Program-made: the position numbers | Source of the DNA: an uncultured delta proteobacterium | GTDB lineage: Bacteria; Myxococcota_A; Polyangia; Polyangiales; Houyiibacteriaceae | Length of the DNA: 64,000 nt | Direction of reading: 5' to 3' | Assembly (NCBI GenBank): GCA_963699755.1 | Contig: CAVOVB010000001.1 | Coordinates: 576,001-640,000 of the forward strand | Part shown: positions 34,201 to 52,200 of the stretch, piece by piece | How the letters are laid out: each line of letters begins with the position of its first letter | Position numbering within the stretch: position 1 is the first letter of the stretch

Positions 34201-37200
34201 TTCGGGCGCTGGGATGATGCCCTCCGCACGCGCGAAGAGCACCCCCGCTTCGAAGCTCTCGATCTGATCGACCGCCTCGGCGTCGATCAGCTTGTCGTGA
34301 AGAAGCTGGCTGACCAGCGCGCCGGCGCCATGATAGCGCAAGCCGCCCGCATGGATCTTCGCCGGCACGAAGTTGTGTCCGAGGGTGTACATCGGAATCA
34401 GAGGCGTCATACCGATGCTGTCACCGAAGTCGTAGCGGAACACGCCGCGCGTGAGCTTCGGGCAGGACGTCGGCTCGCTCGCCAAGCAGCGGATGTTCGT
34501 CCCCTCTGCGAAATTCATCCGAAGGAACGGAAAGCTCAGGCCTGCGAAGTTCGAGCCTCCACCAAAGGGCGCGATCACGACGTCGGGGAGCTCGCCCGCT
34601 TTTTCCATCTGCTTGACCGCCTCTTGTCCGACGACAGTCTGGTGCGTCAGCACGTGGTTGAGCACGCTGCCAAGAGAGTACTTCGTGTCCGGGTCGGTCG
34701 CCGCGCGCTCCACCGCTTCGGAAATCGCGATGCCGAGACTTCCGGGCGAATCGGGATCCTCGGCGAGAATCTTCCGACCGGCTTCGGTCCTGGGGCTCGG
34801 CGAGGGAAACACCTCCGCGCCCCAGGTATTCATCATGAGCTTCCGGTAAGGCTTCTGATCGTAGCTGATGCGCACCATGTAGACTTCGCAACCTACGCCG
34901 AAGTGCTGACAGGCGAAGCTCAACGCGCTTCCCCACTGCCCGGCGCCCGTCTCGGTCGTGATCCGCTTCACGCCCTCCTGCTTGTTGTAGTACGCCTGCG
35001 CAACCGCCGTGTTCGGCTTGTGCGACCCGGCCGGGCTCCCACCTTCGTACTTGTAGTAAATGTGCGCCGGTGTATCGAGCGCCTTTTCGAGCGAGCGGGC
35101 TCGGTACAAGGGAGACGGACGCCACTGCGTGTAGAGCTGCCTCACCTCCTCGGGAATCGGAATCCAACGCTCTTGGCTCACCTCCTGCTCGATCAGAGCC
35201 ATCGGAAAAAGCGGTGCCAAGGCCTCGGGGCCGATGGGCTCCTGGGTTGCCGGATTGAGCGGCGGCAACGGCTTGTTCGGCATGTCCGCTACGATATTGT
35301 ACCAACGCTCAGGGATTTCATTCTCTTCGAGAGTGATCTTGGTTTGCTTCATGGCGTCGCGGAGCCTACCAGCGCTTTGCGTCCCAGACGACCCCTAGCT
35401 AGCCGAGAAAGGCGCTTTGGCCCGATGACCGACTCCCAGCCAGCCCAGCTCAGCCGATCCCTTGGATTTTGGGCGCTCGTCTTCTACGGCGTAGGGGACA
35501 TCCTAGGCGCCGGGATCTATGCCCTGGTCGGAAAAGTGGCAGGCGTCGCCGGAAGCGCGAGCTGGGCGGCCTTTGGCGTCGCGCTCTTGGTCGCGGGCCT
35601 CACCGCCCTCACCTACGCCGAGCTCGGCGGCCGCTTCCCGCGAAGCGCCGGCGAGTCGTTCTTCACCGAGCAAGCGTTCGGTCGCCCTGGCCTGGCGCTC
35701 CTAGTTGGCTGGATCGTTCTCTGTTCTGGAATCCTCTCGCTGGCCACGGTCTCGGTCGCCTTCGGCGGCTACATGAGCGGGCTGGTTCCCTGGCTTCCAC
35801 CATCGCTCACCGTCGTCGGCATTCTCCTCTTGCTGGCGGCGATCAACTTCCGAGGCATACGAGAGTCGTCGACCACGAACATCGTCGCCACCATGGTCGA
35901 GCTGACGGGCCTGCTGATCGTGATTGTGGTCGGCGCCGTCTTTCTAGGGCGCACGCCCGACGCAAGCATCGCACAAACCATCGAAGCGGGCCGCACCGTC
36001 GGTTGGACGGAGATCGCATCTGGCGCGGCCCTCGGCTTCTTCGCCTTCATCGGCTTCGAAGACATGGTCAACGTCGCCGAAGAGGTGAGGGATCCAGAGC
36101 GCAACATGCCTCGTGCGATCCTGATTGCGCTTTGCGTCACGGGTTTGGTCTATTTACTGGTCGTCGTAGTCGCAACAAGTGTCGTCGCGCCGGCCGTGTT
36201 GGCCGACTCCGAAGCGCCCCTTCTCTCCGTGGTGCGTCGAGCCACCGACGTCGTTCCCGACCGACTGTTCACCTTGATCGCTCTCTTTGCAGTCGCCAAC
36301 ACTGGCTTGCTGAACTTCATCATGGGCTCCCGCCTGATCTACGGCATGTCGCGTCAGGGGCTGCTGCCTGCAGCGCTCGGCAAGGTGCACCTCAAACGCC
36401 GCACGCCGCACCTCGCGATCCTCTCGGTACTGGCAGTCGCGCTCGTCTTGGCGCTCTCGGGCACGCTTACCTATCTGGCAGGCACGACCAGCCTGCTATT
36501 GCTTCTGGTTTTCTTTACCATCAACGTCTCCCTCGTCACGATCAAGCGGCGCGATCGCGAGGCGCTGCGCACATTTTGCGCGCCTCGGCTGGTTCCGATC
36601 GCAGGCGCTCTGAGCTGCCTCGGGTTGATGCCGTTCGTGCCCACAGGATCGCTCCTAACGGCCGGAATCATCCTCGGCTTGGGTGCGAGTCTGGTTGCGG
36701 TACGCGGCGAGCGCCGGTCCGCCTAGTCGCCCTTGGGCTTCGGCCTCTCGGGCGGAAGCGAGGGCCGAAACTCAGCTTGTCGCAGGTCGATAATCACGAT
36801 GACCAGGAACAGCGCGAATGATAGCGTGCCAATACCTTGGCCGACCGACATTGCCATCATGACGGGAATCCAACCCTGGTCGAAAAGAGACCAGCTCATC
36901 AGCGCCAGGGCGATCAGGCCGAGCACGCAGGCGTATACCATCAGTCGCGACCGGGAAGCCGTATCGAGGAACTTCTCGATCTTGGCTCGAGCGTTCATCC
37001 GCCCTCCGGCGCTGGGGCCTGGAGCGCCGAATGAGCCGCGGCCTCCGATGGAGTTTCCTCGCCCGATTTGCTAAAAGGATGCGCGTATCCGTGGCAGCCG
37101 GCGCTGGCACAACTCGTTTGGTCGGTGCGCAGGTCGTCGAGAAGTCCGTTATGGTCCGCCACTTCGTTCCATACCTTGCCGGTCGTACTGTGACACTGCA

Positions 37201-49200: not shown

Positions 49201-52200
49201 CGGCCTCGTACGGCCCTGGGCCCGCGTCGATCTCCTGCTGCACTGACCTGCCGGACTCACGCCCCTGGTGACAGACCAGGCACATGTTGCTGCTGCCAAA
49301 GAGTGAGAGGTGCGCATCTTCGGGGAGCTCGTCCACGGGAAACTGCACGGGCTCGAGCGCAGCGAAGGACGGGTTATAGTAGCTCGAGGGCGAGCCGGTG
49401 TGGCAAGCCACACACTCGAGACCAAGTGACGGCGCGTTGGCTTGAGTCACCAGACCGTCAGGCGCATAGTCGAGGAAACCCGCCGCGGAGTGGCACTGGG
49501 CGCAACCGGTGGAAACGGGGCCCGGATCAAAGCGACGCCACGTTCCTGCTGTCAAGTCGCCGTGTCCGCTCGTTGCCCACTGCTCGTAGATCTCGGACGC
49601 GGGTCCACTGGCTAGGGTGTAGCCTTCGGACTCCTCGCCTGTGTCTGCGGGAGAGGGAGCACCGCCGGCGCCACCTGCACCGCCCGCGCCGGAGGCGATC
49701 GCTCTAAACTTCAGCACTGTGGTCTCGGTGAGCGTGATCGGCCCGGCGTACGCTGGGCTCGGGTTGTCAGGGTCTGCAGGGTCGACGTCCGTGAGATCGG
49801 TGGTGAAGTAAATGGTCGCGCCAGCGCTCTCGGGTCCGCTGGCGATCAGCCTGACCGTGATGTTTGGATCGAACGTCCTCCCGGAGGGATCCGCATTGAC
49901 GCAGAGGTCTTCCACGCACGCGGGGATGCTGCCGCCCGTGCCGCCCGTGCCGCCTTCGCCGCCGCCGCCGCTACCCGCAGAGCCACCGCTACCCGCGGAG
50001 CCACCGCTTCCTGCGGAGCCGCCGCTTCCCGCAGCGCCGCCGCCGTCGTCGGAGCTACAACCCATCACTGCGACCGTGAACGACAACATCGCGAACAACA
50101 CGCAACGCGAAACCAAAGACTTATTCATTTGCATGGCCCTCTCACCAATCTCCACCCGATGCTGGACGTGCTGATTCTGTACAATTCGCACGAGAAATCA
50201 AAGGATTGTCACTGAAAAACGTTTTCAACAACCGATACCGATCGCTGCCTTCACGTGCGCGCAAAATCTGCGCGCACAAACTTATTATGCGCGTCGTACT
50301 TGCGGCGTCGGCAGACATCATCTGGGAATCCTCATCTGGTGCGCTTGCTATGCAAGCGCGGTACCAAGTTGAAGCGCTCACTCCTGGTCGACGACGCCCA
50401 CTGCAACCGGTGCGTCGAGCGCGTCGACGCATGCACGGTCGATCAGGCTACGCATGACATGCATCTGTTCAGCGCCGAGACCCTGACCGATCAAGGTCGC
50501 TCCGTACACGAAACCGAAAAGCGCGACCGACGCGGGCACGATCCAAAACGCCCAGGGCGACTGACCCAGCGTCAGCTGAACGATGCCGTACGAGAATCCG
50601 CCGAGCGCAGCGATCGCCAGCAAAATGTAGACGCCCATGAACATCGTCCAGACGTTTGGATGCGGCGAAAAGCGGCCGCGAATCGCCGAGCCGTCCGGCT
50701 CGTCTTCGACTTCGAGGTTGAGATACGGTGACCAAAACGTACGCTCTCCGTCGCGCATCAAGACGACCGCATGTTTCTGAAAGACCTGACCACGCAGCGA
50801 GCCCGGGGCGTTTTGAAGCTGCGATTTCAGCGCGCCGAGCCAGCGCTCACGCTCCACTGGGAGCTGTAGCTCGAACCGAGGTCGCATGCGTGGGGGCGCC
50901 ATACGGGTGAGGATACCGGATTCATTCTCCGAACCGACGCGAAAAAAATGCGCGTGATCGCTGGCCTTCGCTCGAGGTCACGCCGGTGGTGGCGCGGAGG
51001 ATGGGAACACCACTTGGGACGGCGTCATGAATGGGCGCTTCTCGATGTCGACCTGCCGCTCGGGGAAGAAGTCTTCGAAGCAGAGCTTGCTGGTCGTGCG
51101 CAACTGGTCGGCAACGACCTCCGCCATCGAAGTGTCGAGGAGCATTCCCTGCTCGGCCAGGTCTCCCCGGAGCCGATGGCAAAGCTGGTCGATTCGTTGC
51201 AGCGCCGATAGATAGGAGCCGCGCCAGATCTCGAGATACGGCCGGTGGTCCATCGGGTTGGTCGAGAGCAAGCGGCGCAAGGTGTTCGACGGGAGAAAGG
51301 TGTACGAGCTGACCTCAGGATGTTTTCGAAGCGTGGCGTTGCGCGCTCGTTCGAAGCGAGTGAACGTAATGGTCCGAATGTCTTGGTCGATGTTGTAGAG
51401 CACGCCACGTCGATGGGCGACGCCCGGAAGCTTGGACACGTACGGAACGAATGGATCCAAGGTCATGACGAGCGTCGCATTTCGTTGGATCGCTTCGACG
51501 AAGTTGGAGGTTCGGGTGATCGCGCCGTCTTCGTAGTAGCGGCCCTCGATGGGCACGGACGAGAACGCTGGGTTGACGCTGAGCGAAGCTTGAACGGCCT
51601 TGCTGATCGGGACGTGGTCGTAGCCTTCGGAGCCGAACAGGACGTGCGATCGGGCGTCTTGATCGGACGCACCGACGTAGAGCTCGATCGGAAGCTTTCG
51701 AAAGTCGTTGGTGCTGCCGGCCATCTCTATGATCCGGCGCAGGATTACCTCGAATTCGGCGGAGTGAAACGGAGCACCGACCAGGCTCGTATACTCGAGA
51801 AAGAGCTTCTCGGCGGTGTCTTCCCCACGCCCTCGAACGCTATCCCAGAAGGCGCGAAGGGCAGTCTTGGCCGCGCTCGTCATGCGCCAGCGCATGTCCT
51901 GGTGATTGAAGTGCGAGAGGCGCAGGAGGCTCAGCGACAGCGGCGGGACGCGACCACCCTGCTCGTTCGCGATGCCGGCCATCAGCTCGTCGGGCGTGTA
52001 GCCAACCGAGAGAAGGCTCGTGACCACGGCGCCGGCACTGATGCCGAACATCATGTCGAAGTCGTTGACGCCGCAGTTGGTGAGGCAGTCGTCGATGCAC
52101 TTGAGCACGCCCATCTCATAATAGATACCAGTGATGCCTCCGCCCGACGCGCAGATCGCGGTCTTGCCAATGCGACGCGAGCTGGTGAGCTCGTCAGCGG

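Follow-up and report, generated by a model that had tools for sequence, protein, structure and literature searches.

A putative trans-envelope electron conduit of barrel and multihaem cytochromes in an uncultured sediment myxobacterium

A 13-kb cluster of multihaem cytochrome genes in an uncultured sediment myxobacterium probably encodes a trans-envelope electron conduit of porin-cytochrome design, assembled from families without a curated model and served by a putative menaquinol-to-outside route. That the cluster exchanges electrons across the outer membrane is likely, and the host most likely exchanges respiratory electrons with extracellular minerals. In the proposed route, menaquinol would be oxidised at the inner membrane, a 23-haem wire would carry the electrons across the periplasm, a barrel-embedded 13-haem protein would then pass them through the outer membrane, and candidate surface lipoprotein cytochromes would receive them for an insoluble or extracellular acceptor. 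A Rieske/cytochrome b/9-haem trio would offer a second, proton-motive (Q-cycle) quinol entry into the same haem network.

The source genome (5.35 Mb) is rated 100% complete; the assembly has a contamination rating of 9%. It contains five COX1-family matches and, with these haem-copper oxidases kept, extracellular electron transfer would be a facultative trait. The preliminary description held such transfer to be new to the clade. We found no literature linking it to Polyangia, but in one myxobacterial genus, Anaeromyxobacter, it is already accepted, according to passages of PMC11495043.

Cluster layout and the conserved core

We counted CxxCH motifs in all six frames of a 64,000-nucleotide window (Table 1). 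The count reproduced exactly the 23, 13, 10, 9, 8 and 7 haems reported previously, translation agreed with the earlier gene order and strands, and the Rieske, cytochrome b and Cytochrom_NNT genes were confirmed at curated Pfam cut-offs. Position 50128, where the earlier finding ended, corresponds to the 10-haem gene's start at MNKSLV. Among 25 stop-to-stop ORFs with at least three CxxCH motifs in the whole genome, 7 fall within this 13 kb, a clustering far beyond chance. ATGA overlaps join the barrel gene to the 13-haem gene, the latter to the 23-haem gene, and the 8-haem to the 7-haem gene, indicating translational coupling of each pair. RNA-library contigs match parts of the cluster at only 90–99% identity, which does not prove transcription.

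Table 1. Features of the cluster, with window positions; ORF coordinates are those of the six-frame motif count.
Feature	Position	Strand	ORF	Haem motifs	Basis
NapC/NirT-family tetrahaem quinol dehydrogenase	36995..37672	-	36995-37675	3 CxxCH, 1 CxxxxCH	PF03264, 36.5 bits (cut-off 24.1)
g00566, 22-strand outer-membrane beta-barrel (modelled)	37754..38995	+			AF2 model, Foldseek, VIA-align
13-haem lipoprotein (c13)	38992..40050	+	38818-40050	13 CxxCH	Start ATG overlaps barrel-gene stop
23-haem cytochrome (c23)	40047..41561	+	39993-41561	23 CxxCH	Motif count; PF14522, 73 bits; start overlaps c13 stop
9-haem cytochrome (c9)	41562..42803	-	41562-42968	9 CxxCH	Cleavable signal peptide, C-terminal membrane anchor
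Cytochrome b, b6-like N-terminal part fused to subunit-IV-like part	42800..43885	-			PF00033, 173 bits; PF00032, 38.5 bits
Rieske iron-sulfur protein	43860..44291	-			PF00355, 41.8 bits (cut-off 20.3)
7-haem lipoprotein (c7)	44354..45415	-	44354-45484	7 CxxCH, 1 CxxxCH	TIGR01904, 41 bits (cut-off 27); start overlaps c8 stop
8-haem lipoprotein (c8)	45412..47541	-	45412-47574	8 CxxCH	Motif count, translation
10-haem lipoprotein (c10)	47591..50134	-	47591-50197	10 CxxCH	PF13290, 37 bits (cut-off 22)

The preliminary description lacked a porin and listed g00566 as an unannotated 381-aa protein. Pfam and NCBIfam indeed give no match, and structure modelling points to g00566 as the missing barrel. 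Its AF2 model (pLDDT 84.8) has 22 strands; the best Foldseek matches were outer-membrane barrels only (usher, AlgE and OprD, best E 3e-10), and VIA-align superimposed 326–343 residues on TonB-dependent transporter barrels (Z 18–19). The protein carries a signal peptide with an A-x-A|QP cleavage site. Judged from the sequence, translation probably begins at ATC 37754, as a start at GTG 37850, the gene caller's choice, would lose this signal.

In the adjoining c13, all 13 CxxCH motifs and the lipobox Cys20 are invariant in 37 sequences, and the lipobox pattern is kept in 36 of 38 relatives. Modelled with the barrel on our own alignments (all structure models were built without haems), c13 gave ipSAE values of 0.84, 0.82 and 0.84 against 0.00 for the best of three controls, a high score that may partly reflect learned likeness, since a barrel-with-cytochrome complex, MtrAB, has already been solved. 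Of 157 solved complexes 116 attain the ipSAE mark, as do 2 of 215 mismatched pairs. Each model had 370–381 contacts, at least 89% of them shared by the three runs, and a partner pLDDT of at least 75. Residues 151–346 of c13 touch most barrel strands, involving barrel residues 29 to 410, and the model would put the final eight haem motifs in the barrel's interior. This modelled enclosure is in keeping with the outer-membrane conduit suggested earlier.

We infer that c23 is a periplasmic wire. It lacks a lipobox and carries a hydrophobic anchor at the N-terminus; the N-terminal helix is kept in all homologues whose N-terminus is present. Two of the cluster cytochromes are also denser in haem, at about 22 (c23) and 27 residues per haem, than MtrA, whose roughly 33 are quoted as a molecular-wire mark in excerpts of He et al. 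(PMC5566968). The NapC/NirT-type cytochrome has two N-terminal membrane helices, which are hydrophobic and conserved among relatives, and its gene is divergent from the barrel operon.

For synteny we compared 46 related loci, each of at least 12 kb. Every one of them has the NapC/NirT-type cytochrome along with the barrel and c13, the NapC/NirT gene always adjoining the barrel gene. A c23 match is present in 45, with 23–26 motifs in 43 and 18–19 in two whose ORFs look truncated. These four genes form the conserved core and the bc complex lies outside it. A sample of 301 genomes from the order turned up the barrel in 92.

Relation to known conduits and direction of flow

Against the curated Mtr and Ext families, every part of the cluster stayed below cut-off. 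In Shewanella, the quinol dehydrogenase CymA, of NapC/NirT type, serves MtrCAB, and the window likewise combines a quinol dehydrogenase of that family at the inner membrane with multihaem lipoproteins that are likely outer partners. As in MtrCAB and MtoAB/PioAB, a multihaem cytochrome is placed inside an outer-membrane barrel, here by prediction. Homology to MtrCAB is nevertheless undetectable: PF11854 (MtrB_PioB) matched neither g00566 nor anything else in the genome, and no cluster cytochrome reached the NCBIfam cut-offs for DmsE/MtrA or OmcA/MtrC (sub-threshold scores were 44.1 bits against 192 for DmsE and 56.8 against 209 for OmcA/MtrC). The MtrB barrel has 26 strands, whereas g00566 is modelled with 22. 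The threaded cytochrome here is itself a 13-haem lipoprotein, and a membrane-anchored 23-haem protein stands in place of small soluble shuttles.

Another comparable layout is PCC3, which He et al. (2017; PMC5566968, in excerpts) predicted as a porin-cytochrome cluster in Sideroxydans, Leptothrix and further Proteobacteria. In both, a porin gene adjoins a pair of cytochromes that bind very many haems at very few residues apiece, and the 23 haems of c23 compare with a median of 21 in the PCC3 periplasmic cytochrome. The inner-membrane protein that defines PCC3 (five helices, two WX3HX13H motifs) was not found between 36001 and 51500, where a NapC-type cytochrome occurs instead, and the barrel is smaller than PCC3 porins, for which as many as 42 membrane regions are predicted. 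A second multihaem set, previously noted on contig C7, was recovered by ORF scan with 10, 20, 8 and 29 motifs. It includes a PCC3-type inner-membrane protein with both WX3HX13H motifs and is a better PCC3 match than the window's cluster.

Porin, multihaem cytochromes and Rieske/cytochrome b also lie together in ExtHIJKLMNOPQS of Geobacter sulfurreducens (PMC5877670) and in the Mtr+PetAB cluster of Zixibacteria RBG-1 (PMC3903129), as passages of these papers describe them. Relative to Ext, the window's cytochrome b is fused rather than split into ExtP and ExtQ and reaches 201 of the 290 bits required by the ExtP model, ExtM reaches 15 bits against 800, the barrel lacks any NCBIfam match, and the cluster has no rhodanese or selenoprotein. 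RBG-1 is described as having true MtrAB homologues (PMC3903129), of which none was detected here.

If the locus is a conduit, we lean towards outward flow, with minerals, humics or a partner cell being reduced under oxygen limitation; inward flow would then be rather unlikely. As a full alternative, it is unlikely that the same hardware draws electrons from Fe(II), Mn(II) or reduced minerals towards haem-copper oxidases, with the NapC-type protein and Rieske/cytochrome b as the link to the quinone pool. The COX1-family matches would suit this direction, and so might the bc complex beside the cytochromes, by analogy with acidophilic iron oxidisers, which have a dedicated one for uphill flow. 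However, no RuBisCO was found in this genome rated complete, which makes it unlikely that reverse electron flow is needed for autotrophy, and most of the genus does without the trio. Published interpretations of the closest layouts point to oxidation: in the passages concerned, PCC3 is found in iron oxidisers (PMC5566968) and the RBG-1 cluster is read as mixotrophic Fe(II) oxidation (PMC3903129). Yet the argument for oxidation in RBG-1 was the absence of lipoprotein-cytochrome parts (PMC3903129), whereas several lipoprotein cytochromes, one with an OcwA-like fold, occur here.

The lipoprotein cytochromes

No other neighbour of the core is as widely conserved as c7, which is present in 38 of the 46 long loci and shows a lipobox pattern in 34 of 38. 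In c8, a collagen-like Gly-X-Y linker follows the lipid-modified Cys, and the lipobox pattern recurs in 14 of 15 relatives. Its +2 residue is Lys, which at this position is an inner-membrane retention signal in Myxococcus. The third, c10, comprises a lipobox, a Gly/Ser linker, a CHB_HEX_C-type beta-sandwich domain and two tandem pentahaem units that are 41% identical to each other. This protein (g00574) had been described as OmcB-like; its pentahaem unit instead folds most like OcwA and NrfA, and a sequence comparison of c10 with PDB cytochrome chains gave no match. Foldseek with the AF2 model of unit 2 (pLDDT 85) ranked OcwA first (6i5b, E 1.2e-5, TM 0.46–0.47 over its two chains), followed by NrfA nitrite reductases (E 3e-3 to 5e-2) and OmhA. 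OcwA is a cell-surface cytochrome of Thermincola, and that of T. potens is the closest fold to the c10 unit, both being NrfA-related multihaem proteins of the cell envelope. Identity is only 14–15%, OcwA has nine haems rather than two pentahaem units, and c10 is a lipoprotein of a diderm bacterium.

The NrfA matches also bear on a quite improbable alternative, in which c10 is an enzyme reducing soluble nitrogen, sulfur, selenium or similar oxyanions and the barrel is a substrate channel or, as in DmsEF, a conduit sheath feeding a surface enzyme. Against five haems, only four non-motif histidines of c10 are fully or almost fully conserved, so one haem may have an open site. PF02335 does not match c10, however, the cluster contains no CxxCK motif, and searches found no molybdo-enzyme, rhodanese or other catalytic subunit between 36995 and 50200. 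The barrel is moreover predicted to be filled by c13 rather than open, and 13- and 23-haem wires seem excessive for a periplasmic enzyme. Passages of two papers offer precedents for oxyanion reduction: the Geobacter ExtI porin, from a Rieske/cytochrome b cluster, is linked to selenite and tellurite reduction (PMC5877670), and for Caldithrix, Nap and an octahaem nitrite reductase are proposed to receive electrons from Rieske/cytochrome b (PMC5317091).

The Rieske/cytochrome b/9-haem trio

The conduit is joined within the cluster to quinol-oxidising membrane proteins, as the preliminary description proposed, but the bc complex it placed at the core of the system is found in only 11 of the 46 long loci and 17 of 55 genus genomes, about a third. 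Translation of cytochrome b shows the haem ligands Hx13H and Hx14H and the PEWY motif, with no Cys for haem ci; its NCBIfam scores for cytochrome b6 (218 bits) and ExtP are both under cut-off. The Rieske protein has a twin-arginine signal (DRRSIL) and the cluster boxes CTHLDC and CACHNG. The third subunit, c9, replaces cytochrome c1, and its C-terminal anchor is conserved in nine of nine relatives.

Although it holds the genome's sole cytochrome b match, with the Qo-site PEWY motif and all four haem ligands intact, the trio is very improbable as an ordinary aerobic complex III lying among unrelated cytochrome genes: it has c9 for cytochrome c1, is absent from 38 of the 55 genus genomes, occurs only with the barrel (all 17 genomes with an orthologous cytochrome b, within about 5.4 kb in 12 of the 13 having both on one contig), and three of five relatives without it in the locus show no cytochrome b with the window's query, while gene positions on contig C3, where an NrfD-family gene is flanked by a 5-haem ORF and a COX1 gene, suggest an alternative-complex-III-like arrangement with an oxidase.

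The trio is instead an optional accessory insert, tied to the conduit and belonging to a module widespread in other phyla. At 62 further loci with the 9-haem-type cytochrome, mostly from other phyla, cytochrome b lies upstream in 57 and Rieske in 55; labels on these include Ignavibacteriota, Calditrichota, KSB1, Zixibacteria and Bacteroidota. The literature searches turned up no biochemical characterisation of such a trio, and multihaem acceptors for Rieske proteins are discussed for Caldithrix in passages of PMC5317091. The order Rieske, cytochrome b, 9-haem-type is the same as in other complexes with a multihaem subunit for cytochrome c1, but here the trio lies inside a myxobacterial porin-cytochrome cluster and is patchy within the genus. 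It is probably shared horizontally.

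Gene content and bounds of the cluster

A six-frame motif count over the window reproduced every CxxCH number given in the preliminary description, and the genes named there as Cytochrome_B, Rieske and Cytochrom_NNT scored above their curated Pfam cut-offs (PF00033, 173 bits; PF00355, 41.8 bits against 20.3; PF03264, 36.5 bits against 24.1). Genome-wide (5.35 Mb), just 25 stop-to-stop ORFs contain at least 3 CxxCH motifs, 7 of which fall in the present cluster. As the flanking genes belong to unrelated metabolism, with an amino-acid permease upstream and a patatin and an aldehyde dehydrogenase downstream, we bounded the cluster at about 36995–50200.

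The cytochromes are named here by their number of haem motifs (c7 to c23). Genes on the minus strand are ordered c10, c8, c7, Rieske, cytochrome b and c9, with overlaps between c8 and c7, Rieske and cytochrome b, and cytochrome b and c9. On the plus strand, the ATG of c13 overlaps the stop codon of g00566, and the ATG of c23 overlaps that of c13. A gene for a NapC/NirT-type tetrahaem quinol dehydrogenase (NapC-like) and g00566 are divergently transcribed. Searching all ten cluster proteins against their own genome with tBLASTn revealed no paralogues of the g00566 product, c13, cytochrome b or the Rieske protein, while c23 and c8 matched other cytochromes weakly only. Scanning for promoter-like sites (5, shuffles averaging 2.5) and terminator-like sites (10, shuffles averaging 9.4) was uninformative. 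Directly upstream of c10, on the same strand, is a gene for a 174-aa protein with two predicted membrane helices, which matched no family in Pfam or NCBIfam.

Features of the cluster, with haem motifs from the six-frame count and the number of relatives' loci (at least 12 kb) that gave a tBLASTn match
Feature	Position in window	Strand	Haem motifs	Loci with match
NapC-like ORF	36995-37675	-	3 CxxCH + 1 CxxxxCH	46/46
Barrel gene (g00566)		+		46/46
13-haem (c13) ORF	38818-40050	+	13 CxxCH	46/46
23-haem (c23) ORF	39993-41561	+	23 CxxCH	45/46
9-haem (c9) ORF	41562-42968	-	9 CxxCH	11/46
Cytochrome b		-		11/46
Rieske		-		11/46
7-haem (c7) ORF	44354-45484	-	7 CxxCH + 1 CxxxCH	38/46
8-haem (c8) ORF	45412-47574	-	8 CxxCH	
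10-haem (c10) ORF	47591-50197	-	10 CxxCH	
174-aa protein	50378-50902	-		

The predicted barrel and its cytochromes

The 381-aa product of g00566, first described as unannotated, indeed matched no family in Pfam or NCBIfam. The lack of a demonstrated porin had been noted as a gap, and an AlphaFold2 model built from an alignment of 45 homologues (mean pLDDT 84.8) now fills it, predicting a barrel of 22 strands behind a signal helix. Foldseek matched this model to outer-membrane barrels only in the PDB, with the ushers PapC and FimD first (E 3e-10 to 1e-8); AlgE and OprD-family porins ranked next. VIA-align ranked the barrels of TonB-dependent transporters at the top (for example PirA; Z 18.9, rmsd 3.9, 326 residues aligned); these barrels are 22-stranded and wide enough for a plug domain. 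MtrB was not among the best 50 matches of either search, which leaves room for a likeness, and the MtrB_PioB family (PF11854) matched nothing in the genome, g00566 included; for g00566, Pfam as a whole gave no hit at E≤0.01.

The barrel gene seems, from sequence comparison, to start at a conserved non-canonical ATC codon. Its product has a classical signal peptide (cleaved between …HWRVGLAAALALTILAPFSPALA and QP), before which no in-frame ATG, GTG or TTG is found; the sole candidate is an ATC at 37754, about 28 codons ahead of the cleavage site, and the gene caller's GTG at 37850 would delete the signal peptide. We compared this position in loci L006, L025, L026, L031, L035, L036, L012, L020 and L024: many close relatives have ATC, while L020 has ATG, L024 GTG and L012 ATT. 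In distant Polyangiaceae, the start codon is ATG.

The mature barrel (residues 29–413) was then modelled with mature c13 (residues 20–352), using a separate alignment for each. Three runs gave complex-model scores (ipSAE) of 0.84, 0.82 and 0.84, compared with 0.00 for the best of three controls. Of solved complexes, 116 of 157 pass the mark applied, as do 2 of 215 mismatched pairs. Between runs, contacts agreed to at least 89%, with a partner pLDDT of at least 75. The 370–381 contacts involve barrel residues spread over 29–410 and c13 residues 151–346, a region holding the last eight haem motifs of c13 (C155 to C344), with the first five (C47 to C140) outside. This predicted layout is that of MtrA in MtrB and supports enclosure of c13 by the barrel. 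Since a complex of the MtrA-in-MtrB type has been solved and the proteins' own alignments were used, the high score is to be read as likeness and as support for, rather than proof of, binding.

The cytochromes' export signals recur in relatives. A lipobox pattern was found in relatives of c13 (36/38), c7 (34/38), c8 (14/15) and c10 (14/26, most misses being ORFs cut by locus ends). The c9 protein has a C-terminal anchor kept in 9 of 9 relatives, and the NapC-like protein, with its four haem sites, is anchored by two N-terminal helices, not one. c23 has an N-terminal hydrophobic helix of roughly 20 residues without a lipobox. Its haem packing (about 22 residues per haem) is tighter than in MtrA, whose roughly 33 residues per haem are given by He et al. 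(PMC5566968) as a mark of molecular wires.

The c10 lipoprotein consists of a Gly/Ser linker, a CHB_HEX_C domain (37 bits; cut-off 22) and two pentahaem units sharing 41% identity; distant Polyangiaceae have a five-haem, single-unit lipoprotein (~440–560 aa) in its place. With 983 representatives at E≤0.001 and 149 at E≤1e-30, the family of this unit is large and has no name; 28 of its members gave sub-threshold haem-motif matches only in NCBIfam. The closest fold to an AlphaFold2 model of the unit (pLDDT 85.0, pTM 0.88) was Thermincola OcwA (6i5b; E 1.2e-5, TM 0.46), with just two Foldseek matches at E≤0.001; the next matches were to NrfA nitrite reductases, at E 3e-3 or weaker, and to OmhA, an S-layer cytochrome (6qvm, E 8e-3). 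c10 did not match PF02335, and the cluster has no CxxCK motif by six-frame count. Because only four histidines outside the motifs are fully or almost fully conserved, against five haems, the unit might have room for one open haem site. An ESM Atlas search with the unit returned generic c7/c3-type clusters, and sequence searches of PDB chains gave linker matches only for c10 and none for c8 or c9.

Cytochrome conduits across the outer membrane comprise a few unrelated families (Mtr, Omc and Pcc) with one shared principle (PMC12133095), and the present locus has the same design as MtrCAB with CymA, Geobacter Pcc and PCC3, the predicted porin–cytochrome cluster of He et al. It differs from MtrAB, MtoAB and PioAB in having a barrel outside PF11854 and a predicted threaded cytochrome outside the DmsE/MtrA family TIGR03508 (no match for c13; 36 to 44 bits for c23, c9 and c10 against a cut-off of 192), although the modelled enclosure is alike. 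Like PCC3, it has a porin gene adjoining haem-rich cytochromes, here the barrel and then the overlapping c13 and c23 genes. We rejected membership of PCC3, as the defining inner-membrane protein (~300 aa, two WX3HX13H motifs) is absent, with the motif in no frame of 36001–51500. Geobacter Ext models were not reached either (ExtP 201 against 290 bits, ExtQ 23.8 against 150, ExtM 15 against 800).

The second haem-rich set reported on contig C7 is real, with 10, 20, 8 and 29 motifs in its cytochromes. This cluster (C7:195030-204724; L089:3031-12725) resembles PCC3: it contains 29-haem and 8-haem genes and encodes a membrane protein of 295 aa in which the WX3HX13H motif occurs twice, along with 20-haem and 10-haem genes and, inside it, a gene for an Fer4 and pyridine-nucleotide-disulphide oxidoreductase. 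A 592-aa signal-peptide protein of no Pfam family, ending in an aromatic residue, is a possible porin. A third cytochrome cluster (C1:1796337-1801996; L090) consists of fragmented ORFs with 11, 11, 3, 7, 4 and 9 motifs. A COX1 gene of 791 aa is found ~38 kb away, an arrangement that parallels the C7 cluster with its own COX1 gene. COX1-family genes form pairs with equal open frames (C7:244907/C1:1756687, 791 aa; C1:1814690/C1:404117, 468 aa), reflecting duplicated regions or two merged strains; the assembly is rated 9% contaminated.

A conserved, predicted conduit and an optional Rieske/cytochrome b insert

Among 8000 candidates scored, 253 matched the barrel at E≤0.001. In the 120 of these listed, no Pfam domain was found, those with a name were called hypothetical, and organism labels were Deltaproteobacteria, Myxococcota, Polyangiales or Polyangiaceae. 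We retrieved 206 stretches with barrel relatives from reference genomes and kept 78 loci, counting cluster genes in the 46 of at least 12 kb (last column of the table). On the spread in relatives, a gap in the preliminary description, a sample of the order showed the barrel in 92 of its 301 genomes and 34 of its 117 genera; within the window's genus, 45 of the 54 other genomes have it. The conserved engine consists of a NapC-type quinol dehydrogenase and a new barrel–cytochrome conduit, to which the Rieske/cytochrome b complex is an optional addition. Of the earlier proposal that a bc-type complex is wired to an outer-membrane conduit, the conduit is supported by the barrel model and predicted enclosure, whereas the bc complex loses its place as the core, the trio of Rieske, cytochrome b and c9 genes being present in 11 of 46 loci.

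All 11 trio-bearing loci were among 23 near relatives, compared with 0 of 23 distant Polyangiaceae loci, and in several near relatives c7 directly follows c23 at the site of the window's trio. An orthologous cytochrome b (at least 79% identity) was identified in 17 of 55 genus genomes, own included, with a 34–36% identical type only in five more. Every one of the 17 also carries the barrel, while none of the 9 genus genomes without a barrel has the orthologue. In a query of five relatives lacking the trio in the locus, three had no cytochrome b and two the distant type only. Barrel and cytochrome b share a contig in 13 genomes and lie within about 5.4 kb in 12 of these; the exception, G247, has them 1.5 Mb apart (g566 at C1:2997516, cytochrome b at C1:1501163; loci L006 and L099 on record CP070713.1). 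In locus L040 and genome G063, the trio is oppositely oriented and has the 13-haem gene on one side and the 23-haem gene on the other. Taken together, the distant trio of G247 and this placement indicate that the insert moved more than once.

The c9 family is very large (4965 matches among the candidates scored). We analysed 62 further c9 loci, all but one from other phyla (labelled Ignavibacteriota, Calditrichota, KSB1, Zixibacteria, Bacteroidota and Latescibacteria, among others), of which 57 gave a match to cytochrome b upstream and 55 a match to Rieske; where cytochrome b gave no match (five loci), c9 was at the edge of the available sequence. As c9 homologues in other phyla mostly adjoin these genes, the trio is, judged by gene neighbourhood, a widespread three-gene Rieske/cytochrome b/multihaem module that lies inside the conduit cluster in part of the genus; we infer that it was gained horizontally. 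Porin–cytochrome genes beside a Rieske/cytochrome b pair have been described in Geobacter (ExtHIJKLMNOPQS; PMC5877670) and Zixibacteria RBG-1 (PMC3903129), and published work on Caldithrix considers multihaem acceptors for Rieske proteins (PMC5317091).

The Rieske/cytochrome b complex looks functional from its motifs. The Rieske protein has a twin-arginine motif (DRRSIL) and the boxes CTHLDC and CACHNG. The translated cytochrome b, single-copy in the genome, contains Hx13H, Hx14H and PEWY; we take Hx14H to be the b6-type spacing, and the position presumed to be the haem ci ligand site has no Cys. The gene that follows encodes the C-terminally anchored 9-CxxCH protein, not a monohaem cytochrome c1 or f. 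We rejected the trio as a housekeeping bc complex, given this 9-haem third subunit and a cytochrome b orthologue in 17 of 55 genus genomes. Elsewhere, the genome has five COX1-family matches and no cytochrome bd. An NrfD-family gene (C3:563721) is flanked by an ORF with 5 CxxCH motifs (C3:559579) and by a COX1 gene (C3:569901), and these positions suggest an alternative complex III with an oxidase.

Proposed electron flow and environmental setting

The analysis shows the parts with their export signals, a barrel fold by modelling, a c13 that is predicted to be enclosed, and a linkage that is conserved; a route through them can be proposed. Menaquinol would give up its electrons to the NapC-type protein and, in genomes that have it, also to the Rieske/cytochrome b/c9 complex, working by a Q cycle. 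Electrons would then pass to membrane-tethered c23, from there to the periplasmic five-haem part of c13 and through the barrel to c7, c8 or c10 outside. Outward flow is favoured, because lipoprotein cytochromes are plentiful, one of them OcwA-like, and no RuBisCO was found in the genome, which is rated 100% complete. Inward flow through the same conduit is a serious rival, since published readings of similar layouts favour oxidation (PMC3903129, PMC5566968).

We tentatively propose, at rather less than even confidence, that Polyangiales, including an abundant small-genome sediment genus, possess an independently evolved wire across the envelope. It would run from c23, tethered to the inner membrane and bridging the periplasm, to the c13 lipoprotein in a 22-strand barrel, and could be fed by a NapC-type dehydrogenase or by a horizontally acquired Q-cycle trio, the latter making mineral respiration proton-motive. 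Cultured members of the order are, to our knowledge, aerobes, and if the proposal is true, mineral respiration in marine and estuarine sediments would have a significant guild within a clade so far viewed as aerobic. The claim that extracellular electron transfer would be new here needs narrowing: it is accepted within Myxococcota for Anaeromyxobacter (PMC11495043), while nothing was found for Polyangiales. Literature searches, supplements apart, returned nothing for Sandaracinaceae with multiheme cytochrome or Polyangiales with porin-cytochrome, and nothing on topic by title or abstract start for 'Polyangia' with extracellular electron transfer. Among the matches for 'Myxococc' with porin-cytochrome, the string 'myxococc' is absent from the main text of PMC12133095, and PMC10809760 was, in the part consulted, not relevant; neither describes the present system. 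The locus adds a predicted conduit whose barrel and cytochromes match no curated family.

Whether a Q-cycle complex can feed extracellular electron transfer, and hence raise its energy yield, is a long-open question. Close relatives that share the conduit but differ in whether they carry the Rieske/cytochrome b/9-haem insert form a natural experiment, and comparing them could therefore test such feeding.

Near-identical DNA was found in sediment and marine-sediment metagenomes, four studies having runs with shares of at least 0.2; the best match may come from the source sample itself, and small-share runs were left out for habitat. As related DNA occurs in sediment metagenomes from several studies, the trait may have a bearing on how iron, manganese and carbon are cycled there. 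In two estuary RNA-library runs (two studies), short contigs, mostly 90–95% alike, covered parts of NapC, barrel, c13, c23, c9, cytochrome b and Rieske. For c10 there was a single piece, 202 bases long and identical; most of c7, c8 and c10 was uncovered, and gaps and depth carry no conclusion. These contigs hint weakly at transcription of the relatives' genes; RNA libraries can contain DNA. In the window's genus, genome sizes are low for the order, at about 2.7–5.4 Mb compared with mostly 6–12 Mb in the other families listed.
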